The position numbers and the translations under genes were made by a program. From NCBI GenBank assembly GCA_964509695.1, contig CAZDXN010000003.1, positions 1 through 55,428 on the forward strand: a stretch of 55,428 nucleotides of DNA. Reading direction: 5' to 3'. The notes beneath the pieces were generated by a model. That model searched no databases. It was given only the letters and a program-made list of their open reading frames with translations, and was not told the DNA's origin. The stretch comes from an uncultured Pseudomonadales bacterium (GTDB lineage: Bacteria > Patescibacteriota > Microgenomatia > UBA1400 > MFAQ01). Shown here in pieces: positions 3,227 through 50,916 of the stretch. Within the stretch, counting starts at the first letter, position 1, and the number at the start of each line of letters is the position of its first letter.

Positions 3227-3436
3227 TGGCGATCCATATAGATTGCCACATCGCGTACTCTCCCACGGGGATACGCGGGATCTGCGACTTGCAATGACGA
3301 GGCACCGTCATCGCGAGTGTATTCGCGTGGCGATCCATATAGATTGCTTCTCCCGCTAAGCGGGATCGCAATGACAGACCTCACCCTTACATCCCTCCCC
3401 TTGATAAGGGGAGGGAAAAGAGGGAGAGGTGTGAGA
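3227..3436. repeat. Palindromic repeat cluster (GTCATCGCGAG..GCGATCC/GATTGCTTC..GCAATGAC class plus CCCTCCCCTT class)
   Basis: AGATTGCTTCTCCCGCTAAGCGGGATCGCAATGAC also occurs at ~3762-3796 and 55135-55169; the CCCTCCCCTT element is identical to the one at 252-304. Confidence 0.9.
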
Positions 3437-3642: not shown

Positions 3643-3796
3643 GTCATTGCGCCCGTCCGTCCTCTGGCGGAAGGAGCATTCGACGTGGCAATCTATGCAA
3701 ATAATCCTGGATCGTCACGCTACCGCTCGCGATGACGAGTTGACTCTTCGGAATGACATATAGATTGCTTCTCCCGCTTAGCGGGATCGAATGACA
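3643..3796. repeat. Palindromic repeat cluster (GTCATTGCG..GCAATCT / ..GCGATGAC class)
   Basis: GTCATTGCGCCC..GTGGCAATCTA, GGATCGTCACGCTACCGCTCGCGATGAC, AGATTGCTTCTCCCGCTTAGCGGGATCG. Confidence 0.85.
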
Positions 3797-5533: not shown

Positions 5534-7642
5534 TTGAAGATGGGAGACATGTGGTTAAATGAGAGTATGTCAGTGGGTGATGAAAGAGATCCGGAAGTTA
5601 TACAGGTTGGTTCTGGTTTGGTGCGAGTTGAAGCGGGTTTGGTGTTTGATAAAGAAGCTGAATTAAGGAAGACGGTTCTGGCTGAATTGTTGCGCTTAAA
5701 AGTAGTCTCAATTGATGAAAGTCGATTACCTGGCGGCATTATCGTTGATAATCTTAATTTCTTTCGGGGTAAATCGATGGCGAAAGACTCGGATTCGGGT
5801 GAAGATTTGACTGTGTTTGAAGTAATGGAACGGGTCCCTGCGCCAATGAAAAACGGATTGGGAGGTCAAGACTCACAGAAAAATTACTATCACGTCTTTC
5901 GGGACCAGATGGTGGCGACGGAGGAGGATCTAAAGAATGGAGTTGGTGCGAGAGAGATGTTTTTTACCTTGAACGACGCTGCGGATTTGAAAAACCCTGG
6001 TCGATTGAGAGACTATAAGGGGAGGTTTTACTTACTTCTGTCAGAGTTGGGAGGAGAATTTGACGTGAGAAATAATTTTCAGCCGACCAAGAATGAGGGT
6101 TTCGATTCTGGAGTGGATTCTTTTGCGGCCAACGTTTTGGCGATGATATATATTTTGGGTGAAGGAGAACGTGATGAAGACGGGGCGCTTTGGGTAAATA
6201 AGACAAGTGGTGATAGTGCGGAAACACAGAAATTGTCCGGCAGCTGGTTGGCAAGAATGGGTTTTAAATCGTATAGTGGTTTGAAGTGGAGGGATCAACC
6301 GAGAGAGTTGATTGCCAGATACGGCAAAAGTATACCTAATGGAATGTTGAGTGCCGAGGATTTTTCCGACAGAACAAGAGAAAAAATGATCGTAGGCACT
6401 AACGGTCAATTGGTGGTTGAGAATACTAGGATATTTTTTGGACGCAATCGCCTGGGTTACCAAGCGGTCAAAATTTCTAGTGACGGAACGTATGTATTAT
6501 TGAGTCCTGCTGATGCAAAAGGCCAGAGGGCGGTTGACGGGGTGTTCAGAGCCGGTCGGGTGGGGGGAATAATAACGCGACCCAATGTGGTCGAGGGGAA
6601 AGTAATCGGTATGAGGGGGGGGAGTTATCAGGAACGAAAATTACAACCTAGGATAGTAATTCGGCGATATGACGGAGAAGGGAAGGTCCATGCTTGGAGG
6701 GTTGACAGTAAGGTTGCCGCTAGCGGACTACTGAAGCTAAGAGAACGTTTGAAGAAAATCGATCCTACGGTATTACCAAAATTGGATTCGTTACCGTATG
6801 AGAGGCAGCTTTTTTTACTTCACGGTTACATGCAGTTGAATGAGGTTGACAGAGGGAAGTTTGAGGGTGGTTTGGTCAGATGGTCCTCTACCCAGATTGA
6901 GGCAAAATCATATTTGGCTCAGTATAGCGGTTTGGCGACAGTGACCGAGGCGGGTCAAGTTGACGCCAGTTATTGTAAAACAGTCGGACTCTTGCGTAAC
7001 TTTCGACATGTGGTTGAGGGCGAGATAGGTGATGACAGCGAGCCACAAAATCGGTCGCTAATTGAGTTTATAGCTAGGATTACCGAGAGTGTGGCATTTC
7101 GGACGGGGACACTCTTAAGTAAGGTAACCGTTGAGAATGAAGAGGTGGTTCGGGCTGAAATGGATAAATTAAATGGTTTGCTATTGGCGATGGAGTCTTC
7201 GGTGGTGGATTTTGACAAAAAGAATGGATTGAGAAAGACAGCCATATTACGGGACGATAAGGGAGTTGTCTCTAGTATCACGGTTCATCAAAAATTTGGA
7301 TCTCAAGCTGGTGCGGATGAATTGTTTATTACATTTCGACCGGAAAGAAATGATGGCTTAGTAACCAAAGGGGGTGGGCATCCCAGAATTGGTATGACGT
7401 TTAGAAATACTACGGGGAGTTTTAATTTGCGAGTTGACCTAGACAAAAATGGTCTTTCGGTGGATGTTGGTAGTCATAGCGGTGAATTTGCCGGACAAAT
7501 GGCTAAGGCTGGCTTGACACACTATACATATGGAATTATTGACCCGGGTTATCAGAGCCTATTTGGTGCCTACGTTAAGAGGCTGGCTCAGATTTGGGGA
7601 GTTTCTGAATCCACGTGGACACGATCTCGCGGTGTTCAGTAG
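5534..7642 (+). CDS. Hypothetical protein (702 aa)
   Basis: Long uninterrupted ORF with normal amino-acid composition; no family recognised. Confidence 0.8.
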   Translation: MKMGDMWLNESMSVGDERDPEVIQVGSGLVRVEAGLVFDKEAELRKTVLAELLRLKVVSIDESRLPGGIIVDNLNFFRGKSMAKDSDSGEDLTVFEVMERVPAPMKNGLGGQDSQKNYYHVFRDQMVATEEDLKNGVGAREMFFTLNDAADLKNPGRLRDYKGRFYLLLSELGGEFDVRNNFQPTKNEGFDSGVDSFAANVLAMIYILGEGERDEDGALWVNKTSGDSAETQKLSGSWLARMGFKSYSGLKWRDQPRELIARYGKSIPNGMLSAEDFSDRTREKMIVGTNGQLVVENTRIFFGRNRLGYQAVKISSDGTYVLLSPADAKGQRAVDGVFRAGRVGGIITRPNVVEGKVIGMRGGSYQERKLQPRIVIRRYDGEGKVHAWRVDSKVAASGLLKLRERLKKIDPTVLPKLDSLPYERQLFLLHGYMQLNEVDRGKFEGGLVRWSSTQIEAKSYLAQYSGLATVTEAGQVDASYCKTVGLLRNFRHVVEGEIGDDSEPQNRSLIEFIARITESVAFRTGTLLSKVTVENEEVVRAEMDKLNGLLLAMESSVVDFDKKNGLRKTAILRDDKGVVSSITVHQKFGSQAGADELFITFRPERNDGLVTKGGGHPRIGMTFRNTTGSFNLRVDLDKNGLSVDVGSHSGEFAGQMAKAGLTHYTYGIIDPGYQSLFGAYVKRLAQIWGVSESTWTRSRGVQ

Positions 7643-8414
7643 CCGTATTTTCCCAGAGAATCTCGAACAGATCGGAAAAGGTGGCACTGATCGGAACACT
7701 GTCGATAATAGTTGAGATAATTTTGCCTTTGAGGGAGGTAATGGCTACTTTTGAGCCATAGACGATAATTTGTGAGGGAAGGAGGTACTTGGGGTTTTGG
7801 GTGATATGTCTTTCGACGAGCCTATCTTGGTCGTGAAATAGGTAGTTATTTTTGGTGTCGTCTTCTAGGGGAGTAATGGTGCGGGTATGGATATCCAACT
7901 TTATTTGAGCTCTTATTTGTTCATTGATGATTGAGTTTAATTCTTGGTTTTTGTCGTCTAAGACTGAACGGAAAAGGAGAAGATTTTTGGCTAATTTGTT
8001 TATGTCCTTGTACGTTTGTTTTATCCCCTCCAGCCCTTCAAATGAGCTAATTATCGGTCTGATTTCGGTCAGACGGTATGCGCTCTGGAGGTCGGGGAGG
8101 ATGTTTTCGAGATTGGTTTTGGCGGCTTTGGCCTGAAGCTGGATTTGCTCGGAGAGGTCGAGGAGGATGTCTGGTGAATTGGGGGTGAAAGTCGAGGCTT
8201 TGCCCGCCTTTGGCGAGGCATCGCCGGCGAGGCTGGATTTGACCAGCCCGAGTTTGGCAAGCTCCTGACTGACGGTGTAGACGTAGGTTCTTTTGACATT
8301 GGTGGACTTGGCTAGCTGGCTGGCAGATTGGGGTCCGTGGCGGAGGAGGGAGAGATAGATACTTGTCTGGTCGGCGCTCAAATTGAGGCTTTGAAGAAGT
8401 TCTTCCGGTTTCAT
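7575..8414 (-). CDS. TrmB family transcriptional regulator
   Basis: N-terminal wHTH (IYLSLLRHGPQSASQLAKSTNVKRTYVY), FEGLEGIKQ and PLD-like QIIVYGSKVAI; TTGACT-17-TATAGT promoter. Confidence 0.88.
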   Translation of the reverse strand: MKPEELLQSLNLSADQTSIYLSLLRHGPQSASQLAKSTNVKRTYVYTVSQELAKLGLVKSSLAGDASPKAGKASTFTPNSPDILLDLSEQIQLQAKAAKTNLENILPDLQSAYRLTEIRPIISSFEGLEGIKQTYKDINKLAKNLLLFRSVLDDKNQELNSIINEQIRAQIKLDIHTRTITPLEDDTKNNYLFHDQDRLVERHITQNPKYLLPSQIIVYGSKVAITSLKGKIISTIIDSVPISATFSDLFEILWENTATEHREIVSTWIQKLPKSEPAS

Positions 8415-8486: not shown

Positions 8487-8515
8487 TTGACAAAGCCCAT
8501 AACATATGTTATATT
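8487..8515 (+). promoter_or_regulatory. Sigma70-type promoter with a palindromic operator in the spacer
   Basis: TTGACA (8487-92), 17 bp, TATATT (8510-15); palindrome ATAACATATGTTAT at 8499-8512. Confidence 0.75.
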
Positions 8516-8521
8516 ACCGAT

Positions 8522-8897
8522 TAATTGATGATTTCTGAATCGTCAAAGTACATTTACATTCGAGTCGGACAACTGATCTTTAGCAATAAGGATCAAAAGG
8601 GGAAAGTTCTTAGCCTTGGTAGGTTGAGAGCAAATACCGCGAAAGTTGCTAATTGACCCACGGGTCGAGGTGCGACGATCGAGACTAATTCAACCGGAAG
8701 CCAATCTGCTTCTGACTCGGGGGAACCCGATCATCAGGAAAGAGAAGCCGAAGGTTACCACAGACACAACAATCCCGCCTCATCTTTTCCTGTCCCTATC
8801 CTACCTGTCCATTTCGCGCAAGCGATTTTAGGTGAGAAGAGATTATGGCGAAGATGGTGGGATAAAGAGCATGAGAAATCGTACTTTTTATCCCACG
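8522..8897 (+). ncRNA. Candidate structured ncRNA (~375 nt), family unknown
   Basis: Follows a strong promoter; several hairpins with GNRA/CACG loops; long-range helix 8560-69 with 8711-20; final hairpin 8857-69 with 8884-96; no SD-led ORF. Confidence 0.55.
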
Positions 8898-8929
8898 GTA
8901 TATCCGGCGCGAATGTTTCTCGTTATCCT

Positions 8930-8957
8930 TGTCATTCCGGACTTGATCCGGAATCTA
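8930..8957. repeat. Half palindromic element TGTCATTCCGGACTTGATCCGGAATCTA
   Basis: Same class as 189-214, 1862-1890 and 13173-13201. Confidence 0.85.
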
Positions 8958-9138
8958 TATAAATAATTTCCCAAAAAGATTGGTTGCCCGATTCGAACAG
9001 TACCTTAAAAAGTCAATTTTCTCTTTTCTTCTTTCGGAAGAACCCGGGCCGCGTGTTATCTGCGCGCCCGGGATTCTCCGGAAAAATCGATGTTTTTTAA
9101 TGCCCCAGCTGGGGCGGCCGCTAAGGAGGCGGTTTTTG

Positions 9139-11418
9139 ATGAAAGCATACAATTTTGTTCGCGGCCATTTGACAGATGGCCTCGCATTAACGACCGATGA
9201 AAAACTCGGTCGAATTGTATTTCTCGGCGAGGTCGGCCGGGGCCGACGCTATGAGAAAGTGGCGTTGGACCGGCATAACCCGCCGGCGGTGGTAGATGGA
9301 CGCGTGCTGGATTGCCAGCCGCGTAAAGTCACCCTCCAGCCGAAAGACGGGAAGCCCGAGAAGATTTTTTACGTTCTCGAGCAGTCCCGCGGTGGTTCGG
9401 ACGCAGTTTTGGTCCGAATTTTTACCGAGGGGACGTACACAAAGAACACCCGTGGGCGTTGGCAAACGATTGCGGGGAATCCCGAGACCATCATCTCGGG
9501 GTACGGCGCCTACGGCGACGCCGGCCGAATTGGCAACTGGGATGATGGCCTCGTCCTCATGCGCCCGGGAGACGTAGTGAAAGTCACGTTATCCGGGGGC
9601 TCGAAGTTTGAGCCGTATGCGATTTGGTTCAATGATGGCGCCCCCCAATGCGCCACTTGGAAAGAGTACGAGACCCTGACCGCGGTCACTTCGGCGCAAG
9701 CCGAGGCGTCCGGGTCGGGTCTCAAAATTCTTTTCGGCCAAATGCCAACCTTCACTTGGTCTCACGGCAAAGTTGAGCCGGGGATCAAGTTGGCCAAGGG
9801 CCTGACGGGCCCGATGGTGTCGTTAGGTGAATCCGGCCGGGGGCGCACCTTGACCGAGGTGCCTCTGGTCAACTACCCCGTCGAGGGGAAGTTGATCGAG
9901 GCGGCCGTAGCCGTCCTCAAAGAGGAAACCAAACCTTCCCGTTATCCCGGGGGTGAGCCGGAGACGAAAGTCTCTTACGGCTTGACCCAAGGGGCCGCGA
10001 AGGAAGCTGGTTCTGGTTTCCTAGTCAAAGTCTCGAGCTCGTGGGTTTATACCCGTGGGTCGAGTCCGGAGATCTCTGCCTGGAAAGGTAACTCGACTTT
10101 TCTGGCGGAAGGCCGGGGGGCTGAAGGCGATGCTGGCCGGATTTATGATTGGCCGGAAATCCTCGTTGTCCTCCATGAGGGTGACGTTCTTTTTATCCGT
10201 CCGGAAGGCGGATACAAAGTTCGTTCATACACCCTCTTCGTAAAAAACGGTCAGTTGAAAACTGAGCCGTGGGTGACCTGGAAGGTTGAAGACGCGAAGC
10301 GCGACCCCGAGTTCTATGTCGCTAAGGGAACTGCGCCTTCGGCGGGGCTTGTGCCCGCCGAGTGGATTGGGAGGGTCGTTTCCGTCCAGGTCCTCGAGAA
10401 TAGTCGCGATCAAGGCGATCATCTCGAAGAAAAACAGGTCGGTGAGGTCATTTCCATTTCGCCCTTGGTGTTGAATCTGGGGTGGGACGGTCAGGACCGC
10501 TACGACGTGACGATCAATCAGGCGACCTGGGTCCGCCTCGAGAGGGACAAGAAAGTAGTCCGACTCGGAGGCGAAGCCGCCGAAAAGCGGCAGTCGCTTC
10601 GGGCGAGGTTGGAACAGTTGATGGTCGAGGCTGGACAGGCCTTGGCCAAAAGCTACACCTCTCTGGCCAGCGAGGAACTGCGGAAGGAATTGTACGACGC
10701 TTCCCGCAGTTATTACTGGACGCTCGACACCCTGCCCACCGAGGGATGGGGGAATACGATCAGTGCTTTCGTCGAAAAGGCCGAAGCGACCCTGAAGCAA
10801 TTCCGGGAAGTTGAGGCCGAACTTCAAGCCCGCGAAGCGGCCGGAAAGTCGGGTGAAATGATGCCCGATTACCGCGTCCGCCTTGGTGGGTCGAAAAATG
10901 GCCGAGCCGTGGAAACGGCTTGGGCTATTTTGCCGGATGGTTCGACTGTGACCCCGAAAGGGGATTACGGCGAAGCCATTTTCGGCGATTTGACCCCGAC
11001 GGCGCTCGTAGTGACTCATCTCGAGTCCAACTACGGCTACCGCTACTCGGAGGCCTGGATCGTCGCTCATCTGCCCGCCAAGGTGACCGAGGCCCAGAAG
11101 GCCAAGGTTGTCGAGTTGGGGCAAACCGCCCACAAGTACTTCGTGGGCGGCAAGACCGGCTGGGACCTCGCCGAAAAAGAGGTCTACTTCCAGACCGCCT
11201 ACGACCGGGACTTCCGGACGGAGGAGGAGTTAGCGGCCAATCGCGAGATGACGGCCGCCTTCCCCATTGATTTGGGGATCTGGAAAGTAATGCGTTCCTG
11301 CGAGTCCGGGAAGCGCACGGTCTGGGCAGAACGCCGGACCGAGGGCGATTCGAATCGCCCGAGTGAGGTGATGGCGATGGCCTTCAAAGCGGCCGTGGCC
11401 AAGCGCCTCGATGACTAG
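9139..11418 (+). CDS. Hypothetical protein (759 aa) with a tandem-duplicated ~200-aa domain
   Basis: AAGGAGG SD before ATG 9139 (preferred over the track's GTG 8980); GxGAxGDAGRIxxW motif twice, 204 codons apart. Confidence 0.85.
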   Translation: MKAYNFVRGHLTDGLALTTDEKLGRIVFLGEVGRGRRYEKVALDRHNPPAVVDGRVLDCQPRKVTLQPKDGKPEKIFYVLEQSRGGSDAVLVRIFTEGTYTKNTRGRWQTIAGNPETIISGYGAYGDAGRIGNWDDGLVLMRPGDVVKVTLSGGSKFEPYAIWFNDGAPQCATWKEYETLTAVTSAQAEASGSGLKILFGQMPTFTWSHGKVEPGIKLAKGLTGPMVSLGESGRGRTLTEVPLVNYPVEGKLIEAAVAVLKEETKPSRYPGGEPETKVSYGLTQGAAKEAGSGFLVKVSSSWVYTRGSSPEISAWKGNSTFLAEGRGAEGDAGRIYDWPEILVVLHEGDVLFIRPEGGYKVRSYTLFVKNGQLKTEPWVTWKVEDAKRDPEFYVAKGTAPSAGLVPAEWIGRVVSVQVLENSRDQGDHLEEKQVGEVISISPLVLNLGWDGQDRYDVTINQATWVRLERDKKVVRLGGEAAEKRQSLRARLEQLMVEAGQALAKSYTSLASEELRKELYDASRSYYWTLDTLPTEGWGNTISAFVEKAEATLKQFREVEAELQAREAAGKSGEMMPDYRVRLGGSKNGRAVETAWAILPDGSTVTPKGDYGEAIFGDLTPTALVVTHLESNYGYRYSEAWIVAHLPAKVTEAQKAKVVELGQTAHKYFVGGKTGWDLAEKEVYFQTAYDRDFRTEEELAANREMTAAFPIDLGIWKVMRSCESGKRTVWAERRTEGDSNRPSEVMAMAFKAAVAKRLDD

Positions 11419-11427
11419 TGTCTTTCT

Positions 11428-11468
11428 GGGGTGGCGGGTTTGTAACCCGCCACCCCAATTCTATTTTT
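11428..11468 (+). terminator. Intrinsic terminator-like hairpin
   Basis: GGGGTGGCGGGTT-TGT-AACCCGCCACCCC followed by AATTCTATTTTT. Confidence 0.7.
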
Positions 11469-11537
11469 CTGAAAGAAGAGGAGAGAATGTGTTCGATTGA
11501 AGTAGTTTCGTTTTGCCTGCCTGTGAAGCTTGACCCT

Positions 11538-11576
11538 GGACAGGAATCAGGTGACGCAGGCGGATAAGACGAAATT
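11538..11576 (+). repeat. 39-bp direct repeat, copy 1
   Basis: GGACAGGAATCAGGTGACGCAGGCGGATAAGACGAAATT. Confidence 0.9.
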
Positions 11577-12231: not shown

Positions 12232-12270
12232 GGACAGGAATCGGGTGACGCAGGCAGGTAAGACGAAATT
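12232..12270 (+). repeat. 39-bp direct repeat, copy 2
   Basis: GGACAGGAATCGGGTGACGCAGGCAGGTAAGACGAAATT. Confidence 0.9.
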
Positions 12271-12794: not shown

Positions 12795-12865
12795 GGACAG
12801 GAATCGGGTGACGCGGGCGGACCTGCTGAAAGCCAAGGCATTCAGGCGGGCGGGTAAGACGAGAT
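12795..12865 (+). repeat. 39-bp direct repeat, copy 3, interrupted by a 33-bp hairpin insertion
   Basis: GGACAGGAATCGGGTGACGCGGGCGG[ACCTGCTGAAAGCCAAGGCATTCAGGCGGGCGG]GTAAGACGAGAT. Confidence 0.88.
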
Positions 12866-21964: not shown

Positions 21965-22900
21965 TTAGAGGCTGGAGAGGTCAAGTTTTACGGATGGGGT
22001 TTGGTTGGCGGTAAGATAGGCAGTGGTGATTTTGGTCAAGCCGATTTCTTTGAGAAGTGCGGTGAGATTGCCGGTCAGTTCGTCAACCTTTTGACTGGTT
22101 TTGCCAAGGCTGACGTGGATGATGGGGAACTTCGGCTCGGTTTTGTAGGTAATCGTAGCCCCGGCGGAGAGCTGTTTGGCCCGGCCTTCTGGGTCGGCAG
22201 TGACTGTGCCGCTCTTGGGATTGGGCATCAGGCCTTTGGGGCCTAGAATCTTGGCGTAGCGAGCTAGTTTGGGCATGTCTGCCGGGGTAGCCAGAAGAAC
22301 ATCGAAGTTAAATTCATTGTTGTTTAGGGCGGTGACGGTTTTGTCGGAGAATATTTCGACGCGAACATTCTTGCCGGTAGAGAAGGGGGTTTTAACTTCA
22401 CCGCGAAGACCGGTGTCGATGACGTTTAGATGAAGGTCGATGGTTCTAGTTCCGCCGGCGAGGGAGATTAGCTTTTCGAGAGCGACTTTTGGAGCCAGAA
22501 CTTCATTACTCTTGATTTTTTTAGCGAGGATTTTGTAGCGCTTCGAGCGGCCGTAGATGTGGCTGGGGTACTTGGCGAAGTGGCTGGTGGAGATTACGGG
22601 TGCGTCATCCTCGCGAACGCGGGGATCCATACTATCTGTATAGATTCCCGATCGGGTCGGGAATGACAAAGTAGATTGCTTCGTGGGTACACTCCCTCCA
22701 GAGGCGGGCTTTGGCGCAATGACGGGGGAGTAGGTGACGTGAACTTTTTCCAGATCGGCATCGGAAAGGCCAAGGGCGAGGAGTTCGCCGTCAGTTTTGG
22801 CGGTGAGCTGTTCGGGCTTGACGCGCTTCTCACGAAGAACCTTAGCGATATTTTCCGGCAAATCTTGATATAGTTCTTTCCAATTCGTTCTAGTTGCCAT
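21965..22900 (-). CDS. rplA: 50S ribosomal protein L1 with a ~115-aa N-terminal extension
   Basis: RGEVKTPFSTGK, FDVLLATP, ILGPKGLMPNPKSGTV; directly downstream of rplK. Confidence 0.95.
   Translation of the reverse strand: MATRTNWKELYQDLPENIAKVLREKRVKPEQLTAKTDGELLALGLSDADLEKVHVTYSPVIAPKPASGGSVPTKQSTLSFPTRSGIYTDSMDPRVREDDAPVISTSHFAKYPSHIYGRSKRYKILAKKIKSNEVLAPKVALEKLISLAGGTRTIDLHLNVIDTGLRGEVKTPFSTGKNVRVEIFSDKTVTALNNNEFNFDVLLATPADMPKLARYAKILGPKGLMPNPKSGTVTADPEGRAKQLSAGATITYKTEPKFPIIHVSLGKTSQKVDELTGNLTALLKEIGLTKITTAYLTANQTPSVKLDLSSL
22604..22723. repeat. 120-bp palindromic elements in-frame inside rplA
   Basis: GTCATCCTCGCGAACGCGGGGATCCAT..TAGATTCCCGATCGGGTCGGGAATGACA plus AGATTGCTTCGTG..GCGCAATGAC. 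Confidence 0.85.
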
Positions 22901-37594: not shown

Positions 37595-37670
37595 GTTGAA
37601 CGAGATTGTATTACGGGATACTCAATCAGTCAATGAGAACGGGACGGGTGTGTTTTTGAATTACTTCCTG

Positions 37671-37781
37671 TGTCATCGCGAGGGAGCGATAGCGACCGTG
37701 GCGATCCATATAGATTGCCGCACGCGTGTACCTGCCCCAATCGCTGCGCTCAAGGCGTTGCAGGCGGGCGCTCGCAATGAC
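37671..37781. repeat. Complete GTCATCGCGAG..GCAATGAC palindromic element with a nested insert
   Basis: TGTCATCGCGAGGGAGCGATAGCGACCGTGGCGATCC..GATTGCC..CTCGCAATGAC. Confidence 0.85.
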
Positions 37782-37786
37782 GGAAA

Positions 37787-38749
37787 CTAGAGGGATTTGT
37801 AGAGGATTTTTTTGGTGGCGGCGTCGATTTGGACGACGAAGGGTTGACTGTTGTCGCCGGATTTGAAGCTGATTTGCCAGAGGGTGGCGCTGGACCTGTC
37901 CTGAGCGGAGCCGAAGGGCTTTATATATTGACCGGAAATAGAGGTGGTGGTGCAGTTGAAGGTTGTAGGGCAGACAGCGGTGGAGATGCTCACGGCCTCA
38001 GGCAGATCGATACCCAGCTGAGAATTGGCAGCAAGCTGGTTAAGTGAAGGGGTGAGGGTGTTTTCGGCGACGGTGACTTGCTGGTCAACGACGACGAGGT
38101 CTTTGTTTGGTTCGGCCATGACGTAAAGATATTTTTTGTCCGTAGGGGTCTGTCTGAACCAGTATTTGATGACGGCGAGGGTTGGATCCTGAAAGTTCTC
38201 GGTTTTGATCATGATGAGTTGAGCGGATGGGTATTGTTTTTGAGCGGTGGCGATGACTGTCTGAATGTCGCCAAAAACTTTTCCGGTGGCACTGGCTGTA
38301 GCGGTTGGAGAAGGAGTGGTAATAGGCGTCTGTGTGATGGTCAGGTTAGGGGCGGGGGTTTGAGTCGGGATAATCTGATTTTCTTTGATTTGCTGCTGTT
38401 GCATGGTTTGGGTGATTTGGGTGAGCTGGGCGTTGAGACTCTTGGTTTGTTGGTAGAAGAAGTAGGTGGCGGCGATGGCGCCAATTGAAATAAGAAGAAG
38501 CAGGGCGGTGACGACGGGGAAGGGTTTTCTGGCCGATGTGGGCATGGTCGCGGGAATCTGAGCCGCTGGTTCCGGGGCTATTACCTCAATGGGTTCTGGG
38601 ACTGAATTGGGAATCTCCTCAATTATGGGCTGTGCCGAAAGATCCGCCGATTTGGCGGACAGGTCAGGAGCGACGGCATCAGTGAGTTGGATTTCGGGGG
38701 TAGTTTGGACAGGCTGAGGGAAAGACCCCGTGGTTGGATCGTTGGGCAT
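37787..38749 (-). CDS. Membrane-anchored hypothetical protein with a PepSY-like C-terminus
   Basis: TM helix, Q/T/P linker, WQISF..VVQIDAATKKIL; two in-frame palindromes at 37895-918 and 38642-60. Confidence 0.8.
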   Translation of the reverse strand: MPNDPTTGSFPQPVQTTPEIQLTDAVAPDLSAKSADLSAQPIIEEIPNSVPEPIEVIAPEPAAQIPATMPTSARKPFPVVTALLLLISIGAIAATYFFYQQTKSLNAQLTQITQTMQQQQIKENQIIPTQTPAPNLTITQTPITTPSPTATASATGKVFGDIQTVIATAQKQYPSAQLIMIKTENFQDPTLAVIKYWFRQTPTDKKYLYVMAEPNKDLVVVDQQVTVAENTLTPSLNQLAANSQLGIDLPEAVSISTAVCPTTFNCTTTSISGQYIKPFGSAQDRSSATLWQISFKSGDNSQPFVVQIDAATKKILYKSL

Positions 38750-39396: not shown

Positions 39397-40861
39397 GAAA
39401 CATATTATAAAGCCAGTGATAAAGCCGGGGCGGTCGATGTCCGGGGTGACGCCGCTGGCGGCGATGATGAAGCCGTTCAATTGTCCGGGGGAGTGTATCT
39501 ACTGCCCGCTGGAGTTAAACATGCCCAAGAGCTACCTTTCGGACGAACCGGCGGCTCAGAGGGCGAAGAAACTGAATTTTGACGCCAGGGCCCAGATCTC
39601 CCAGCGGTTGGAACAACTGAAGATGAACGGCCATCCGACGGACAAGCTGGAGATTATCGTGGTTGGGGGAACGTACTCGGCTTACCCGACCGATTACAAA
39701 ATTTGGTTTATTGGCGAGATTTATCGAGCCGCAAACGAAACAAAAAGACCTCTCCCTCTTCTCCCCCAATTACCTCACCCCACCCCTCCCCTTGATAAGG
39801 GGAGGGAGAAGAGGGAGAGGTGTGAGTGGGAAGAGAAGGTTTTGGCTGAAATAAAAATAAATGAAACTGCCAAACAGAGAATCGTAGCTCTTTCTGTAGA
39901 GACTAGACCTGATTGGGTGACTGAGGCTGAAGTGCGACTACTGCGAAGGCTAGGAGTGACGAAGGTCCAGCTGGGAGTACAGGCGATTGATGAAGAAATC
40001 AGTCGGATCACCAAGCGGGGGCACGGACAAGCCGAAGTGGCCGAGGCGACCAGACTCTTGCGGAATGCGGGGATGAAGATTTGCTATCACATCATGCCGA
40101 ATCTACCCGGAAGTGATCCGAAGAAAGATGTCGAGATGGCAAAACTAATCTATACCGACCCCCGGTTCATGCCAGACTACGTCAAGCTTTATCCCTGTAT
40201 GGTGATCAAGGGAACGGCCTTGTATCGACTGTGGCAGAAGGGGCAATTCAAAACCTATGACGATGAAACCTTGAAGAAGGTCCTCAAGGAAATCAGCGCC
40301 ATTACTCCCGAGTGGGTCAGAGTCGACCGGCTGATACGGGACATCTCAAAAGGTTGGGTGGGGGCAGGAAGCGTCAAAACGAACATGAGACAGGAAGTAG
40401 AACGGGAGTTGATTGCCGAGGGGAGACCTTGTCGGTGTATTAGATGTAGAGAAATTGGAGCAGGAAGTTACGAAGATACGAATTTAGAATTTAAGGCGAT
40501 TGAATTAGCAACAATTGGGGGGAGGGAAGTGTTTTTTAGTTACGAGAATGAACACAAATTGTTTGCACTCCTTCGCCTGCGACTGCCTGACCCTTCAGAG
40601 AAGATGTTGTTTCCGGAATTAAAAGAGGCGGCGATCGTTCGGGAGGTTCATTCTTATGGTCAGGCGGTGCCGCTGTCGACCCGAAGAGAAGGCAAATCTC
40701 AACACCAAGGTTTGGGGCGGCTTTTGATGGAGAAGGCCGAGGAGGAAGCGGTCAAAAACGGGTACAAAAAGTTGGCGGTCATTGCCGCCGTTGGGACGCG
40801 GGAGTACTACAAAAAATTGGGCTATGTCTTGGAAGGCTTATATATGGTGAAGACGTTCTAG
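39395..40861 (+). CDS. elp3: Elp3 family tRNA U34 acetyltransferase (radical SAM plus GNAT)
   Basis: CPGECIYCP, GHPTDKLE, SVETRPDW, VQLGVQ, RVDRLIRD, CRCIRCRE, REVHSYG and QHQGLG; palindromic insert at 39749-39826. Confidence 0.94.
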   Translation: MKHIIKPVIKPGRSMSGVTPLAAMMKPFNCPGECIYCPLELNMPKSYLSDEPAAQRAKKLNFDARAQISQRLEQLKMNGHPTDKLEIIVVGGTYSAYPTDYKIWFIGEIYRAANETKRPLPLLPQLPHPTPPLDKGREKRERCEWEEKVLAEIKINETAKQRIVALSVETRPDWVTEAEVRLLRRLGVTKVQLGVQAIDEEISRITKRGHGQAEVAEATRLLRNAGMKICYHIMPNLPGSDPKKDVEMAKLIYTDPRFMPDYVKLYPCMVIKGTALYRLWQKGQFKTYDDETLKKVLKEISAITPEWVRVDRLIRDISKGWVGAGSVKTNMRQEVERELIAEGRPCRCIRCREIGAGSYEDTNLEFKAIELATIGGREVFFSYENEHKLFALLRLRLPDPSEKMLFPELKEAAIVREVHSYGQAVPLSTRREGKSQHQGLGRLLMEKAEEEAVKNGYKKLAVIAAVGTREYYKKLGYVLEGLYMVKTF

Positions 40862-45958: not shown

Positions 45959-46927
45959 GATGGGGGTTTTGCCGGGAAGTTGAACTAGATCAATTTTCAA
46001 TTTACAATTTTTAATTTTCAAATAATTTTCAAGAGAGGTTCGAATAATTTTCAATTCAAGATTGCCAATTTTCGTCCAGGCGCCGGGATCGGGATTCAGT
46101 GAACGAATCAATGCATGAATTCGTTCACATTTGACATTGCTCATTTGACATTGCTCATTTGACATTTGAGATTTTTCAAGACATGGTTTTATTTCTTCCC
46201 AGGGGATGAAGGCGGATTGGCGGTTTCTGGTTTTGGTGGTAGAGGTGTAGGTGGCGAGGGTTTCGTTTTGGTGGGTTAGAAGAACCTCACCCCGTCCCTC
46301 CCCTTGATAAGGGGAGGGAGAAGAGGGAGAGGTAAGTGAGGATATTTTGGGAAGGTACTCGGCGAGGAGTTTAATGCCGCCTTGGGTAAGTTTGTTCGTC
46401 AGAGTTTCACAATTGTCGTTTATATCAATACTAACTTTTTCTTGGGAAATGATTGGTCCGGTATCCATTCCCTCATCCATAGCCATCAGGGTGACGCCGG
46501 TTTCGGAGTCCTGATTTTTGATCGCCTCGCTGATACACAGGGCGCCGCGGTATTTGGGAAGCAGAGAAAAGTGGAGGTTAAAGGTGCCGATAGTGGAAGC
46601 GGTCAACCAAGGCTTTGGAATGATCTTGCCGTAACTGACGACGAGAAAGAGATCGGGTTTTAGGAGTTTGAGGTGGGCCAGGTTTGCCTCGTCGAGTTTC
46701 TCGGGTTTGAAAACTGGGAGATTGTATTCGGTAGCGAGTTGGGCGACGGGAGACGGAGTCAGGATTTGTTTCCGACCGAGGGGTTTGTCGGGTTGTGTGA
46801 CTACCCCCGCGAGGCAGAAAAGGACCCCCTCTTTATCTCCCCCTTCGCTAGGGGGAGAGTTTTTTATTAGGGATTCGAGGATTTCGGCGGAGAAGGCGGG
46901 AGAGCCGAAGTAGACTAGGTTCGTCAT
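45908..46927 (-). CDS. fmt: Methionyl-tRNA formyltransferase with several repeat-derived inserts
   Basis: VVTQPDKPLGR, VVSYGKII, NLHFSLLPKYRGA, MDEGMDTGPI and IRSLNPDPGAW. Confidence 0.96.
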   Translation of the reverse strand: MTNLVYFGSPAFSAEILESLIKNSPPSEGGDKEGVLFCLAGVVTQPDKPLGRKQILTPSPVAQLATEYNLPVFKPEKLDEANLAHLKLLKPDLFLVVSYGKIIPKPWLTASTIGTFNLHFSLLPKYRGALCISEAIKNQDSETGVTLMAMDEGMDTGPIISQEKVSIDINDNCETLTNKLTQGGIKLLAEYLPKISSLTSPSSPSPYQGEGRGEVLLTHQNETLATYTSTTKTRNRQSAFIPWEEIKPCLEKSQMSNEQCQMSNVKCERIHALIRSLNPDPGAWTKIGNLELKIIRTSLENYLKIKNCKLKIDLVQLPGKTPISWQQFQSRTDPTKSAI

Positions 46928-48985: not shown

Positions 48986-50916
48986 TTTTTGGTGAGAGTT
49001 TTGAGGGAGGCGCGGGCGGCATCGTAGTCGGGCTTCAAATTGATGGCTTTTTGGAAATATTTTTTGGCGGAATCGTTTTTTCCGGTGCTTTGGTAGAGCA
49101 GGCCGAGGTTGTAGGCGACCTTGGCGTCGGTGGGCGAGAGCTCGAGGAGGTTTGTAAGTGTCTGAATGGCTTCTTGATTATATTTAGGGTCAATAGTACC
49201 AAGATAAAGTTCGACCTTGGTTCGGCTTTTGTAATAATTCCCTTGGTATGGATTCATGGCGATGGCTTTGGTGGAGTTTGTGTCTGCCTGAATAATAAGA
49301 TCATTCATCAGTTGGACTGCTCCCGGTTTGTCAACCTGGCTTTTGATAGATGAAGCGGCCATGGCTTGGGCTTCGGCCAATTGCGCCCAGAAGAGGGGTT
49401 CGTCAGGAGAAATTCGGACGGCTTGTTCGAGATAGTCTAGGCTGGGCTTTAGGAGCTGTTGGTTGAGAGTTTGTTTGCCGCGGTTGTAGGCAAGGTCGGC
49501 CCTCCATTGGTTGACGGGGATTAATAGTAAATAAATGGTAATTAATAGTAATAGGGGGAGAGATAGCCATTGATTGATGTGGAAGTTGATAGATAGATGC
49601 TTTTCGATGGTGTCGCTATTGACTGAGGCGATGGCGGGGAAAAGAAAAAAGAAAAGGGCGACCGGGACGACCGAGAAGCCAAAGTAGTTGGTGATCATGA
49701 TGCCGAGATAACCAAAAAATAGAGGCTCGGGCCAGAGGAGCAAGAGGGAAGCGAGATTTAGAAAGAGATAGGTGGCGAGGCCGAAGAAGCCGGTGTTGGC
49801 TAGAGTATTGAGATATTCGTTGTGGGCTTTGTTGTAGAGGAATTCCCACTCGGAAAGGAGGTTGTGGATGGCGGGGCGGACTGAGAAATAAGAGTAGCCA
49901 AAGGTTTCGACGCCGGAACCAAAAAGAGGATTCCTCTTGGCTAGTTCCCGAGCTCCTTGCCAGACGACCTGACGAATAATCAGGGAGTCGGAGCCGCCGA
50001 TGCGCTGTTTCTTGTCCTGAACGACGAGCTGGTCCAGATTGGGAGGTCCGAGGGGGCTAATTTTTTGGAAGAAAGACCATTTGGAAGCGACCAAGAAAAT
50101 AGCAAGGGTGATGAGGGGAAGTGACATGAGTAACTTTTGGTAATTTGAGGTAATTGGTTGTAATTTTTTGACTAAGAAATAGACCAACATGGCGGCGAGA
50201 ACGACGGCGGTCGCGCCGAGGCCGGATTGGGATTTGGTGAACCAAATGGTGAGGAGGAAGAGAGTTGTCAGTAGGCAGTTGACAGTGATCAGTTTTTTGG
50301 TCTTGGCTTTGACGGCGAGGAAGATGGGGAGGGGGAGGAGAGCGACGAGATAGGCGGAGAGCCAGTTGGGCTGACCAAGGGTGGAAAAGACGCGGTTTTG
50401 GACGTCTTGAACCCAGAGCGACTTGTCGATACCGAAGTGCTCGGCGATTCCGTAGAGCGAGACCAGGGTGGCCGATGAAAGAATTGAAATGAGGACAAAT
50501 TTGATTTTGTAAACCTCTCCCTCGGACTCCCTCCCCTTGGTAAGGGGAGGGATGGGGTGAGGTGACATGTTGGTGACAAAAGCATAATAGAGAACGATGT
50601 AGGAGATGGTAGACATAAGCCCGCCGTGGAAGCGGGAGTAGTAGCCCCAGAGGCTGGTGTGAGTGTCGATGCTGAAAATAGTTGACAGAATCTGAGAAGC
50701 TAAGAAGAGAAGAATGGGAAGATCGAGGGGGGTGCGGCGGATGGTGATTTTCTTTTGGTTGATCCATTTGACTACCCAGGCGGCGGAGATGAGGATAGTT
50801 AGGACGTAGACGAGGAGCATTTTGTTGAACTCAAAGACCTCGGAAGTACCCGGCCAGAGGACGAGGGGGATGAAAAAAAAGAGGGCGTAGAAGAGGGACT
50901 CGATCAGCTTTGACAT
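48982..50916 (-). CDS. O-antigen ligase family polymerase with C-terminal TPRs
   Basis: RVFSTLGQPNWL, TKSQSG, PLFGSGVETF, KAHNEYL and C-terminal TPR helices; palindromic insert at 50513-62. Confidence 0.93.
   Translation of the reverse strand: MSKLIESLFYALFFFIPLVLWPGTSEVFEFNKMLLVYVLTILISAAWVVKWINQKKITIRRTPLDLPILLFLASQILSTIFSIDTHTSLWGYYSRFHGGLMSTISYIVLYYAFVTNMSPHPIPPLTKGRESEGEVYKIKFVLISILSSATLVSLYGIAEHFGIDKSLWVQDVQNRVFSTLGQPNWLSAYLVALLPLPIFLAVKAKTKKLITVNCLLTTLFLLTIWFTKSQSGLGATAVVLAAMLVYFLVKKLQPITSNYQKLLMSLPLITLAIFLVASKWSFFQKISPLGPPNLDQLVVQDKKQRIGGSDSLIIRQVVWQGARELAKRNPLFGSGVETFGYSYFSVRPAIHNLLSEWEFLYNKAHNEYLNTLANTGFFGLATYLFLNLASLLLLWPEPLFFGYLGIMITNYFGFSVVPVALFFFLFPAIASVNSDTIEKHLSINFHINQWLSLPLLLLITIYLLLIPVNQWRADLAYNRGKQTLNQQLLKPSLDYLEQAVRISPDEPLFWAQLAEAQAMAASSIKSQVDKPGAVQLMNDLIIQADTNSTKAIAMNPYQGNYYKSRTKVELYLGTIDPKYNQEAIQTLTNLLELSPTDAKVAYNLGLLYQSTGKNDSAKKYFQKAINLKPDYDAARASLKTLTKN

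Follow-up and report, generated by a model that had tools for sequence, protein, structure and literature searches.

A long-range complementarity between the leader and the 3' flank of a conserved hypothetical protein gene in a Patescibacteria chromosome, probably an RNA element

The stretch of DNA analysed here, hereafter called the window, comprises 55,428 nucleotides of a Patescibacteria (CPR) chromosome and carries a highly conserved gene for a hypothetical protein of 759 aa, which is preceded by a long non-coding region and a divergently oriented regulator gene (Table 1). Two segments outside its open reading frame, arm A in the leader and the anti-arm A' in the 3' flank, are complementary to each other. 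The protein is composed of two tandem beta domains, a coiled coil and a variable C-terminal domain, and displays an internal duplication. It has 84 homologues or homologue clusters, the few named ones being from Patescibacteria MAGs. Searches of Pfam, NCBIfam, PHROGs and the PDB sequences returned no match that would indicate a function, and its AF2 model (pLDDT 86) had no Foldseek match against the PDB.

The third-position GC content (GC3) of the gene is 0.70, the highest in the window, and in all ten genomes with flank sequence (out of 11 genomes) the gene is GC-richer than its flanks. This excess suggests a strongly expressed gene, and mRNA stabilising elements are common for genes of this type. 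Horizontal transfer as the source of the high GC was rejected, since the gene is richer than its flanks in every one of these ten genomes and GC3 is high also in L10 and NusG.

The sole strong promoter upstream of the gene is of the sigma-70 type and is divergent to the TrmB-family regulator gene. It is also present in L022, a 75%-identical relative, in which a 36-nt block containing the palindrome ATAACATATGTTAT is 100% identical. The non-coding region that follows, probably the distal 5'UTR, aligns with L022 as conserved blocks split by indels whose lengths are not divisible by 3, and at its end contains a 75-nt insertion (8897-8972) specific to the window. No Rfam family was matched in this upstream region, and Rfam searches of the window, the leader and the trailer, with gathering and E-value thresholds, returned only tRNAs and spurious hairpin matches.

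Table 1. Features of the locus, with positions in the window.
Feature	Position	Strand	Basis or remark
TrmB-family regulator gene	7575-8414	-	Pfam match
Sigma-70-type promoter TTGACA-N17-TATATT	8487..8515	+	Scan score 11/12, extended TG; perfect palindrome ATAACATATGTTAT inside spacer
Long non-coding upstream region with conserved blocks; hairpin 8857-8896	8520..8972	+	Alignment with L022
Outer helix TCGAACA / TGTTCGA, probably fortuitous	8993..8999 / 11490..11496	+	Sequence pairing
Conserved leader motif GTACCTTAAAAAGTCAA	8996..9018	+	Kept in the window, both L022 leaders and L001
Arm A (5' arm of the long-range helix)	9019..9042	+	Pyrimidine tract, then palindromic end TTTCGGAAGAA
Long local leader hairpin	9029..9086	+	Inverted repeat; consensus fold of four leaders, inner-stem covariation
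Two small conserved hairpins, GCCCC-AGCT-GGGGC and CCGC-loop-GCGG	9102..9132	+	
Gene for the 759-aa conserved hypothetical protein	9139..11418	+	Translation
Hairpin T, GC-rich, 14-bp perfect, then T-rich tail	11427..11457	+	Terminator-like in the window
Arm A' (3' arm, anti-arm)	11464..11487	+	Starts as T-run behind hairpin T, then purine tract
Second large hairpin downstream of A'	11503..11575	+	Conserved in L092

The leader carries a motif whose form common to three species is G(T/A)AC(C/A/T)TT(A/G)AAAA(G/T)T(C/A/T)AA and which is predicted to pair locally with bases 5-10 of arm A. An earlier reading, made from the sequence only, had described positions 9000-9018 of this motif (GTACCTTAAAAAGTCAATT) as boxA-like. 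By eye, about six of 12 positions match the E. coli consensus GCTCTTTAACAA, so that the name is not warranted, although the segment itself is conserved; the window holds no rRNA operon for a boxA comparison. Because the 3' half of arm A is part of the long local leader hairpin, this hairpin and the long-range helix compete; the same hairpin also gives a spurious miRNA-like match. The conserved local leader hairpins can engage arm A fully, and are formed long before A' is made. The Shine-Dalgarno sequence AAGGAGG (9123-9129) is presented by the CCGC-loop-GCGG hairpin, 9 nt before the ATG. The only members recovered by a covariance model of the leader were the four sequences on which it had been trained, and it is confined to this clade.

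Behind the stop codon, hairpin T looks in sequence like a decent intrinsic terminator, so that co-transcription of A' with the gene depends on transcripts passing T. That the 3' arm lies beyond such a hairpin had been noted before and is correct. The counterparts of T in L001 and L022 are weak or unscored as plus-strand terminators, and A' is therefore plausibly transcribed. The 3' arm of the second large hairpin is part of copy 1 of a thrice-repeated element (GGACAGGAATCRGGTGACGC...TAAGACGAAAT), and the hairpin is followed by TTAATGCCCCAG, which is also found in the leader at 9097-9108. A small ORF starting at ATG 11488, behind GAGGAG of the anti-arm, was dropped, as it is conserved in neither L001 nor L022.

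Arm A (TTCTCTTTTCTTCTTTCGGAAGAA) pairs with A' (TTTTTCTGAAAGAAGAGGAGAGAA) over 24 consecutive positions on the plus strand, 20 of them Watson-Crick and four G-U, exactly in the sequences and coordinates given by the sequence-only reading. The energy of this duplex is -31.1 kcal/mol, and becomes -37.3 kcal/mol when the outer helix is added; the latter does pair in the window, as had been claimed, but has no counterpart in the arm-bearing relatives L001 and L022 and is probably fortuitous. Arm A ends 97 nt before the ATG and A' starts 46 nt after the stop, both arms thus being outside the ORF. Considered as DNA, the arms are inverted repeats flanking the segment with 83% complementarity. When the full-length read-through RNA (8975-11500) is folded, all 24 arm bases pair with the trailer in the MFE structure, with a mean probability of 0.92.

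The complementarity is an extreme outlier. It is the longest run of Watson-Crick plus G-U pairs within 5 kb on the plus strand of the window, and among the cognate 5'/3' flank pairs of 57 ORFs the runner-up reaches only -17.1 kcal/mol, so that no other gene of the window has a comparable flank helix and random genes do not pair similarly. Its energy is matched by four of 3192 non-cognate flank pairs, every one of which is a real repeat or an overlapping region. The caveat that the arms are low-complexity tracts does not explain the pairing, because shuffles that preserve the pyrimidine and purine tracts reach -31.1 kcal/mol or better with P=0.0008. The check originally proposed, RNAduplex of flanks against shuffled flanks, was uninformative when applied to whole 200-nt flanks, since long gapped duplexes form in any flank pair (z for the window only -1.3); it was replaced by best ungapped helices and non-cognate flank pairs. 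Because a cross-genome non-cognate null is confounded by GC, the low P values that seem overrepresented among the orthologues were not counted as evidence. The four non-Watson-Crick positions are indeed all G-U, but as an argument for RNA-level selection this is weak: the plus strand is rich in G+T (173 Watson-Crick plus G-U runs of at least 16 nt on it, versus 20 on the minus strand) and the definition of the helix itself allowed G-U.

Conservation of the pairing was followed in relatives of the window. The orthologue in L001 (64% aa identity) has 23 consecutive pairs (-27.8 kcal/mol) at equivalent relative positions, and a near-consensus promoter directly upstream of its leader places the arm in the 5'UTR. 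Three double compensatory changes were found in L001, at positions 5 (C-G to U-A), 6 (U-A to A-U) and 10 (C-G to U-A), as the earlier reading had asked of orthologues. The local alternative hairpin for arm positions 5-10 is uncompensated there, whereas the A/A' helix is compensated. The U-G at position 8 and the G-U at position 18 are kept in all three arm-bearing species, which argues against homogenisation of the arms by gene conversion and fits a plus-strand RNA. In the alignment, 95.8% of the cells are paired in the proposed register, versus 62-71% in slid registers. Covariation shuffles gave 21/500, a statistic that is weak because all three compensatory changes sit on the L001 branch and the arms occur in three species only. 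No helix of the A/A' type was found in more distant orthologues.

The arrangement in L022 is different. Here the anti-arm is found upstream of the gene and does not flank the known part of it; an inserted, unrelated gene precedes the anti-arm, and a second copy of the leader is 28 nt away. The anti-arm is predicted to pair with the adjacent arm with a probability of 0.57, versus 0.29 for the distant arm. This placement indicates a movable arm/anti-arm module rather than a fixed bracket of the 759-aa gene. L022, the sole extra close relative obtained from metagenome and genome scans, is cut at a contig end. Its inserted gene had no homologues in the search made, and the possibility that it is a decayed copy of the 759-aa gene was rejected by blastn and tblastx. 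A partial copy of the 3' end of the gene in the same species (L092) lacks A' as an indel of about 40 nt in an otherwise homologous flank. The C-terminal domain, used as a query, matched only a second, truncated copy; the 3' end that the L022 gene lacks did not turn up. Two further assemblies, L002 and L003, are identical to the window and have the same orientation.

The complementarity of A and A' is genuine, unlikely to have arisen by chance and maintained in evolution. Taken together, the complementarity, its compensation, the position of both arms outside the ORF and the predicted fold make an RNA-level 5'/3' helix the best single reading. A/A' is thus probably a real RNA element, less likely a DNA element, and elements of this type have already been described for a few bacterial mRNAs. 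We give an even chance to its more specific form, in which the arms make an intramolecular duplex between 5'UTR and 3' flank (in L022, an intercistronic hairpin) on transcripts that pass T, and this duplex acts as a processing or stability element for an RNase III-class enzyme. On transcripts passing hairpin T the arms would form a duplex of 23-24 bp that closes the mRNA outside its translated region, and a duplex of this length would be a substrate for such an enzyme. Upon cleavage, the long distal 5'UTR and the read-through tail would be lost together, leaving a message bounded by the leader hairpin 9043-9072 and by hairpin T, and read-through transcripts would in this way meet a fate different from that of terminated ones, comparable with lambda sib and the rRNA stems. 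In L022, where the anti-arm lies between two cistrons, two partners are available, the arm preceding the first gene and the arm of the following leader close by. Pairing with the latter would be stronger and would form an intercistronic processing hairpin. The presence of both arms on one transcript, duplex formation in vivo, cleavage by RNase III (or Mini-III) and the sign of the effect on expression are inferred. Within the window, no gene for RNase III was seen, which is uninformative on the genome as a whole.

An unlikely alternative is that the arms are inverted repeats that function as DNA, as recombination or protein-binding sites, for example at the termini of a gene module that can be inverted or moved. 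Complementarity would then be kept since both sites fit one sequence-specific protein, or since recombination exchanges them, and the terminal repeats of mobile elements likewise co-vary at both ends. The repeats flank a whole gene, and in L022 it is an inserted ORFan gene, accompanied by a duplicated leader, that the module encloses, the order A'-spacer-leader-gene being a circular permutation of the order in the window. In keeping with a mobile unit are also the 40-nt indel that A' forms relative to L092, the truncated second copy of the variable C-terminal domain in the L022 species, and the fact that three assemblies break at one identical point of the gene. However, neither the neighbours nor the other large window ORFs scanned yielded a recombinase, invertase or transposase, and the 759-aa protein does not resemble such enzymes in sequence or predicted fold. 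Neither candidate boundary shows target-site duplications or direct repeats, the arm has no other copy in the 55-kb window, and the three independent assemblies (window, L002 and L003) are in one orientation. The gene is syntenic with the TrmB-like regulator across distant relatives, which speaks for vertical inheritance, and the two arm differences kept in three species show that the arms are not being homogenised.

The same modest weight is given to the possibility that the selected element is the local hairpin A'-spacer-A of L022, an intergenic insulator, processing site or terminator extension, and that the long-range pairing is functionless, the arrangement in the window and L001 being what remained after the loss of neighbouring units. 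The short distance between A' and the next arm in L022, with the pairing probabilities given above, agrees with this, as does the presence in L005, L009 and L072, which are more distant, of direct repeats of hairpin elements on both sides. The sequence behind A' in the window is also weakly leader-like, with TTAATGCCCCAG, AGTACCTT and a large hairpin at the place of the leader hairpin (P about 0.01-0.03), but this similarity is marginal and is absent in L001 (P=0.9 with its own leader, 0.14 with that of L022). Furthermore, the window and L001 have neither a second arm beside A' nor an A' upstream of the leader, and relics should lose complementarity, whereas 23-24 pairs are kept in these two genomes with three positions changed on both sides.

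Quite unlikely, in our estimate, is a broader proposal in which the repeats are a portable RNA bracket, by which this Patescibacteria clade would excise cistrons from long transcripts in a manner similar to pre-rRNA. Its targets would be the 759-aa gene in the window and L001 and the inserted ORFan gene in L022, and the ends of an excised mRNA would stay base-paired and thus be exonuclease-resistant. As a variant of this proposal, the repeats could double as DNA sites by which modules are moved or swapped with their leaders beside a variable surface-type protein gene. The earlier suggestion of a system serving several mRNAs is not supported: no other gene of the window shows such a helix, the window has no other copy of the arm, and the leader model is confined to this clade. 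Nor did anything point to the circular RNA that had also been suggested.

Chance complementarity between a leader pyrimidine tract and a purine tract beside the T-run of a terminator is very improbable: the arms are of low complexity, G-U pairs come easily on a G+T-rich strand and the outer helix is unconserved, but the tract-preserving shuffles, the non-cognate pairs, the compensatory changes in L001 and the presence of the arm pair in L022 all stand against it.

The RNA-level 5'/3' helix can be compared with several known systems. Its description as an undescribed system was overstated, as pairing between 5'UTR and 3'UTR is known in bacteria for icaR (PMC3868564) and hbs (PMC5737220). In the B. 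subtilis hbs mRNA, a 14-bp duplex between the two UTRs, located within the terminated transcript, modulates the access of an endonuclease (RNase Y) and thereby stability (Braun, Durand & Condon 2017, PMC5737220). Like it, A/A' would be a long-range duplex outside the ORF of one highly expressed mRNA (for the 759-aa gene, so predicted) with a structured leader and a strong Shine-Dalgarno sequence, but this duplex would have 24 bp and its 3' arm lies behind a terminator-like hairpin. For A/A', a nuclease of the RNase III class is proposed. In S. aureus icaR, the 5'UTR and 3'UTR pair via UCCCCUG, which covers the Shine-Dalgarno sequence and blocks initiation (Ruiz de los Mozos et al. 2013, PMC3868564). 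In contrast, arm A lies 81 nt upstream of the Shine-Dalgarno sequence at 9123-9129, and the A/A' pairing neither overlaps nor contacts it.

The 16S and 23S pre-rRNAs have leader-trailer stems that are cut by RNase III or Mini-III, together with boxA antitermination. As in these stems, a functional RNA of several kb would be enclosed as a whole by a helix of more than 20 bp made from its flanks. The RNA enclosed here is a protein-coding mRNA of 759 codons instead of a structural RNA, no boxA match or Nus-dependent antitermination signal was found, the 3' arm lies beyond a terminator-like hairpin, and only one gene of the window is concerned. In phage lambda, int is retroregulated by sib: a structure sensitive to RNase III becomes complete only on transcripts that read through a terminator, read-through being driven by N antitermination. 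The different fate of terminated and read-through mRNAs would be common to both, but sib extends a local hairpin at the 3' end, whereas A/A' would close the 5' and 3' flanks, and no N-like counterpart was identified. Intercistronic RNase III hairpins are known from the early mRNAs of phage T7 and from rpsO-pnp; the order in L022 (terminator hairpin, A', 28-nt loop, A, next cistron) likewise makes a 24-bp hairpin between co-oriented genes, while in the window and L001 the halves of the hairpin are a 2.3-kb gene apart. Invertons and mobile elements share with A/A' the imperfect inverted repeats of about 24 bp around a gene-sized segment and the different placement in a relative; they differ from it in that A/A' is single-copy, in one orientation in all assemblies, with conserved inter-arm differences and without recombinase, transposase or target duplications.

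To our knowledge, long-range 5'/3' pairing in bacterial mRNAs is limited to a handful of cases, all from cultivated Firmicutes and mostly with short duplexes. A/A' would differ from these in being a 24-bp bracket with compensatory changes, in having its 3' arm beyond a terminator hairpin, and in enclosing a gene that seems to be among the most highly expressed of an uncultivated CPR bacterium with a reduced genome. If confirmed, 5'/3' mRNA pairing would extend to a deep bacterial lineage and would offer a clean case of terminated and read-through transcripts being handled differently; if the repeats act on DNA, they would represent an unrecognised way of moving leader-gene modules. The 759-aa family is worth study in its own right, with its 84 clusters, a confident predicted structure without PDB match, and its constant pairing with a TrmB-like regulator.

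The window comes from the chromosome of a Patescibacteria (CPR) bacterium. Its genes include two for MreB and those for ribosomal proteins L10, L1 and L11, for NusG and for PIN-domain proteins, besides five or six tRNA genes; its region of interest is identical on a contig of GCA_016183355.1 and on a Logan contig. The plus strand displays a strongly positive GC skew over the whole 55 kb (range +0.03 to +0.41), whatever the gene orientation, so that helix searches tolerating G-U pairs are biased towards this strand; runs of Watson-Crick and G-U pairs of at least 16 nt number 173 on the plus strand versus 20 on the minus strand. A 96-nt tRNA-Leu(aag), called by ARAGORN at 22369-22464 (+) within the ORF of ribosomal protein L1 (21965-22900, -), is probably a false positive, since Rfam has no match there.

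The target gene is enclosed by two complementary arms, one in its 5' leader and one (the anti-arm) behind its 3' end, both located outside the ribosome-translated region. This leader-trailer complementarity, put forward by an earlier sequence-only reading with exact arm sequences and coordinates, was confirmed: the arms form 24 pairs in a row (20 Watson-Crick, four G-U) at -31.1 kcal/mol and, delimited with G-U allowed, form the longest such run within 5 kb on the plus strand of the window. When, for each of 57 ORFs, the 200 nt upstream were scored against the 150 nt downstream for their best ungapped helix, the target gene reached -31.1 versus -17.1 for the runner-up gene among the cognate pairs, while 4 of 3192 non-cognate pairs attained -31.1, every one of them a genuine repeat or overlapping intergenic regions. 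The low complexity of the arms, a reservation made in that reading, does not account for the match, since shuffles confined to the pyrimidine tract of the arm and the purine tract of the anti-arm rarely equalled it (P(E<=-31.1) = 0.0008; P(run>=24) = 0.0026). That all four non-Watson-Crick pairs are G-U, formerly taken as a sign of selection on RNA, is a weak argument on so strongly G+T-rich a strand, and a proposed outer helix (TCGAACA/TGTTCGA, 8993-99 with 11490-96) is present in the window and has no counterpart in L001 and L022, the relatives carrying both arms. A thermodynamic fold of the full read-through transcript (8975-11500) paired 24 of 24 arm bases with the trailer at a mean probability of 0.92, which, folding being a weak predictor for a 2.5-kb RNA, shows only that no other structure out-competes the helix at equilibrium. 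The hairpin between stop codon and anti-arm (hairpin T) was also confirmed, with a terminator-like plus-strand score; because the anti-arm starts with the T-run that follows it, only transcripts passing hairpin T carry the anti-arm.

Features of the target locus, its inserted counterpart in L022 and a dispersed repeat family (window coordinates unless stated).
Feature	Coordinates	Strand	Remarks
Promoter TTGACA-N17-TATATT	8487-8515		Nearest strong promoter, near-consensus; perfect 14-nt palindrome ATAACATATGTTAT in spacer
Distal upstream hairpin	8857-8896		
Arm	9019-9042		5' leader
Target gene	9139-11418	+	759 aa; strong Shine-Dalgarno AAGGAGG 9 nt 5' of ATG
Hairpin T	11427-11457		Perfect 14-bp stem, then ATTCTATTTTT
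Anti-arm	11464-11487		Behind 3' end of target gene
208-aa ORFan gene	L022 1642-2268		Inserted between two leader copies; own hairpin and anti-arm behind
Palindromic repeats TCCCTCCCCTT-N3-AAGGGGAGGGA	265-289, 2032-2056, 3392-3416, 39783-39807, 46295-46319, 50528-50552		Six intergenic sites

The interval separating promoter from leader (8520-8972) is non-coding over roughly 400-450 nt; its conserved blocks are set apart by indels whose lengths are not multiples of three, and no Rfam family matched the upstream and leader region. This stretch may belong to a long structured 5'UTR, which from the promoter position may thus measure about 620 nt, or represent a separate ncRNA. The spacer palindrome, surrounded by a 36-nt block of 100% identity to L022, is likely an operator, perhaps bound by the TrmB-family regulator encoded divergently 5' of the target gene, as in several distant relatives. 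The predicted fold of the proximal leader contains conserved local hairpins: the motif earlier called boxA-like (9000-9018) is a potential partner of arm bases 5-10, a long hairpin with a co-varying inner stem (9029-9086) is closed by the 3' half of the arm, and two small hairpins present the Shine-Dalgarno sequence. The arm is thus subject to local competition from structures that form earlier.

The leader is confined to a narrow clade: a covariance model built from four leaders matched nothing further in 83 loci, and orthologues with at most 55% amino acid identity showed no comparable inverted helix. In L001 (64% amino acid identity) the arm GATTCTTATTTTTTCTTTCGGAA, 93 nt 5' of the ATG, and the anti-arm TTCTGAAAGAAAAGATAAGAATC, 46 nt 3' of the stop, occupy the same relative positions as in the window and form 23 consecutive pairs (-27.8 kcal/mol). 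Both sides have changed at three pairs (C-G to U-A at 5, U-A to A-U at 6 and C-G to U-A at 10), showing that complementarity is maintained, whereas the local pairing of arm bases 5-10 lacks compensation. The window, L001 and L022 share U-G at position 8 and G-U at position 18, which argues against simple homogenization of the arms by gene conversion. Paired cells amounted to 95.8% in the proposed register versus 62-71% in slid registers; all three double changes fall on the L001 branch, and the shuffle control on four sequences (21/500) was low-powered. A near-consensus promoter (TTGATA-N17-TATAAT) directly 5' of the L001 leader places its arm in the 5'UTR, and the 3' hairpin of this locus has no plus-strand terminator score.

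The arrangement differs in L022 (75% amino acid identity), where the target gene is cut by the contig end. Its anti-arm TTTTTTCTGAAAGAAGAGCAGAGAA lies upstream of the target gene, separated by 28 nt from the arm of that gene's leader, and directly behind a hairpin following the unrelated ORFan gene, 5' of which is a second full leader copy with its own arm. The locus thus runs from the promoter through leader 1 (arm), the inserted gene, a hairpin, the anti-arm and leader 2 (arm) to the target gene. The inserted gene, whose protein found only itself among 5.8 billion clusters, has exactly the bracketing seen for the window's target gene. Arm 2 also forms a local 24-bp hairpin with the anti-arm; in a 1-kb fold the anti-arm paired with arm 2 at a mean probability of 0.57 and with arm 1 at 0.29.

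The search for the 3' part that the L022 gene lacks yielded only the contig L092, from the same site series, with a copy of the C-terminal domain that is truncated at its 5' end and has an in-frame stop before it. Over a 152-nt overlap its identity to the L022 contig is only 83%, so it represents a second copy. Its 3' flank retains the hairpin and the window's downstream hairpin element and lacks the anti-arm through a clean ~40-nt indel (with respect to 11464-11503), so that the anti-arm is a movable piece rather than a fixed part of the gene's 3' flank. A purine-rich, anti-arm-like stretch, together with the in-frame stop, precedes the truncated copy. Three independent assemblies of the 75%-identical species (L022/L087/L088/L089) break within the gene, in two cases at residues 606-610; these breaks and the L092 copy may reflect strain variation or a silent C-terminal cassette.

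The arm pair is a real, conserved feature and probably an RNA element. A cis-acting RNA duplex is the most economical reading over the three species, and we give this RNA-level reading about an even chance. Duplexes of 23-24 bp are long enough for an RNase III-class enzyme. The analysis demonstrates that the complementarity exists, is improbable by chance and has been maintained; we infer co-transcription of the arms, a duplex in vivo, its cleavage and the sign of its effect. Such an enzyme would cut the duplex, trimming off the long 5'UTR along with the read-through tail, and the ends of the remaining message would be formed by the leader hairpin and hairpin T; in L022, two cistrons would be separated by this pair.

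Inverted repeats acting in DNA, as an invertible or movable module, are an unlikely alternative: the L022 order is a circular permutation of that in the window, the anti-arm behaves as an indel and the truncated L092 copy exists, but no recombinase or transposase was found among the window ORFs scanned, target duplications are absent, the arm is single-copy in the window, the orientation is the same in three assemblies, the gene shows vertical synteny, and the differences between arm and anti-arm are conserved. Just as improbable is that the local anti-arm/arm hairpin is the functional unit and the separated arms are relics; weak leader-like similarity 3' of the anti-arm and the hairpin-element repeats on both sides of more distant orthologues would fit this, whereas the compensatory changes between separated arms speak against it. 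We consider slightly more doubtful still a portable bracket that excises cistrons in the manner of rRNA or doubles as the boundary of a DNA module. Chance complementarity is highly improbable, contradicted by the outlier status among flank pairs, the tract-confined shuffles and the compensation in L001.

[quoted passage not shown] Such pairing probably recurs here in an uncultivated lineage. The present helix, in its proposed working most like hbs and rRNA stems, differs from known cases in its 24-bp length, in a 3' arm beyond a terminator-like hairpin, in leaving the Shine-Dalgarno sequence uncontacted and in its modular reuse around another gene in L022. The restriction of the anti-arm to transcripts passing hairpin T can be likened to lambda sib retroregulation. 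Membership of the rRNA/boxA class was rejected, as the enclosed RNA is an mRNA and 9000-9018 failed the boxA test; on the features examined the locus does not qualify as an inverton or as an IS/MITE element. The general system and the circularisation suggested by the sequence-only reading are not supported.

The 759-aa protein has 84 homologous clusters, the few named ones from Patescibacteria MAGs, and matched nothing in Pfam, NCBIfam, PHROG or PDB sequences. Its confident, mainly beta AlphaFold2 model (pLDDT 86) shows a tandem pair of related domains at the N terminus, followed by a coiled coil and a C-terminal domain, and gave no Foldseek hit in the PDB at E<=0.001. Residues 1-606 are conserved in the family and the last ~150 are variable; the N-terminal beta domain, present twice in the long form, also occurs as stand-alone homologues of ~190 aa in many genomes (L014-L021, L035-L072). 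The target gene exceeds its flanks in GC content in 10 of 10 genomes with comparable flanks (11 examined) and has the GC3 maximum of the window (0.70; L10 0.66, NusG 0.67), suggesting codon usage shaped by strong expression and not a recent transfer.

In L005, direct repeats of one hairpin element, e.g. GGGGAACCGGCCGATGTCTTGGCCGGTTCCCC, are placed ~143 nt before the gene and 12-45 nt behind it, and same-hairpin direct repeats flank both sides of the gene in the more distant orthologues L009 (leader and trailer) and L072. Repeated flanking modules seem a recurrent property of this gene family, the cross-genome statistic being confounded by GC content.

Within the window, a ~40-nt element with the pattern GGACAGGAATCRGGTGACGC(R)GGC(R)G..TAAGACGA(A/G)AT and no matching Rfam family occurs in three direct plus-strand copies (11538-11557, 12232-12251, 12795-12814; 0.01 expected by chance). 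Copy 1 supplies the 3' side of a hairpin of 23 bp at 11503-11575, just behind the anti-arm, and is kept in L092, and copies 2 and 3 lie just 5' of genes of 167 and 155 aa. The palindromic repeats listed in the table, often extended by ACCTCACCC...GGGTGAGGT (15 half-site matches versus 2.5 expected), are a REP-like or shared-terminator element. Another repeated palindromic sequence, GGCAATCTATATGGATCGCCA and relatives, is found in distant intergenic regions (~3238-3253, 3681-3696 and 37595-37794).
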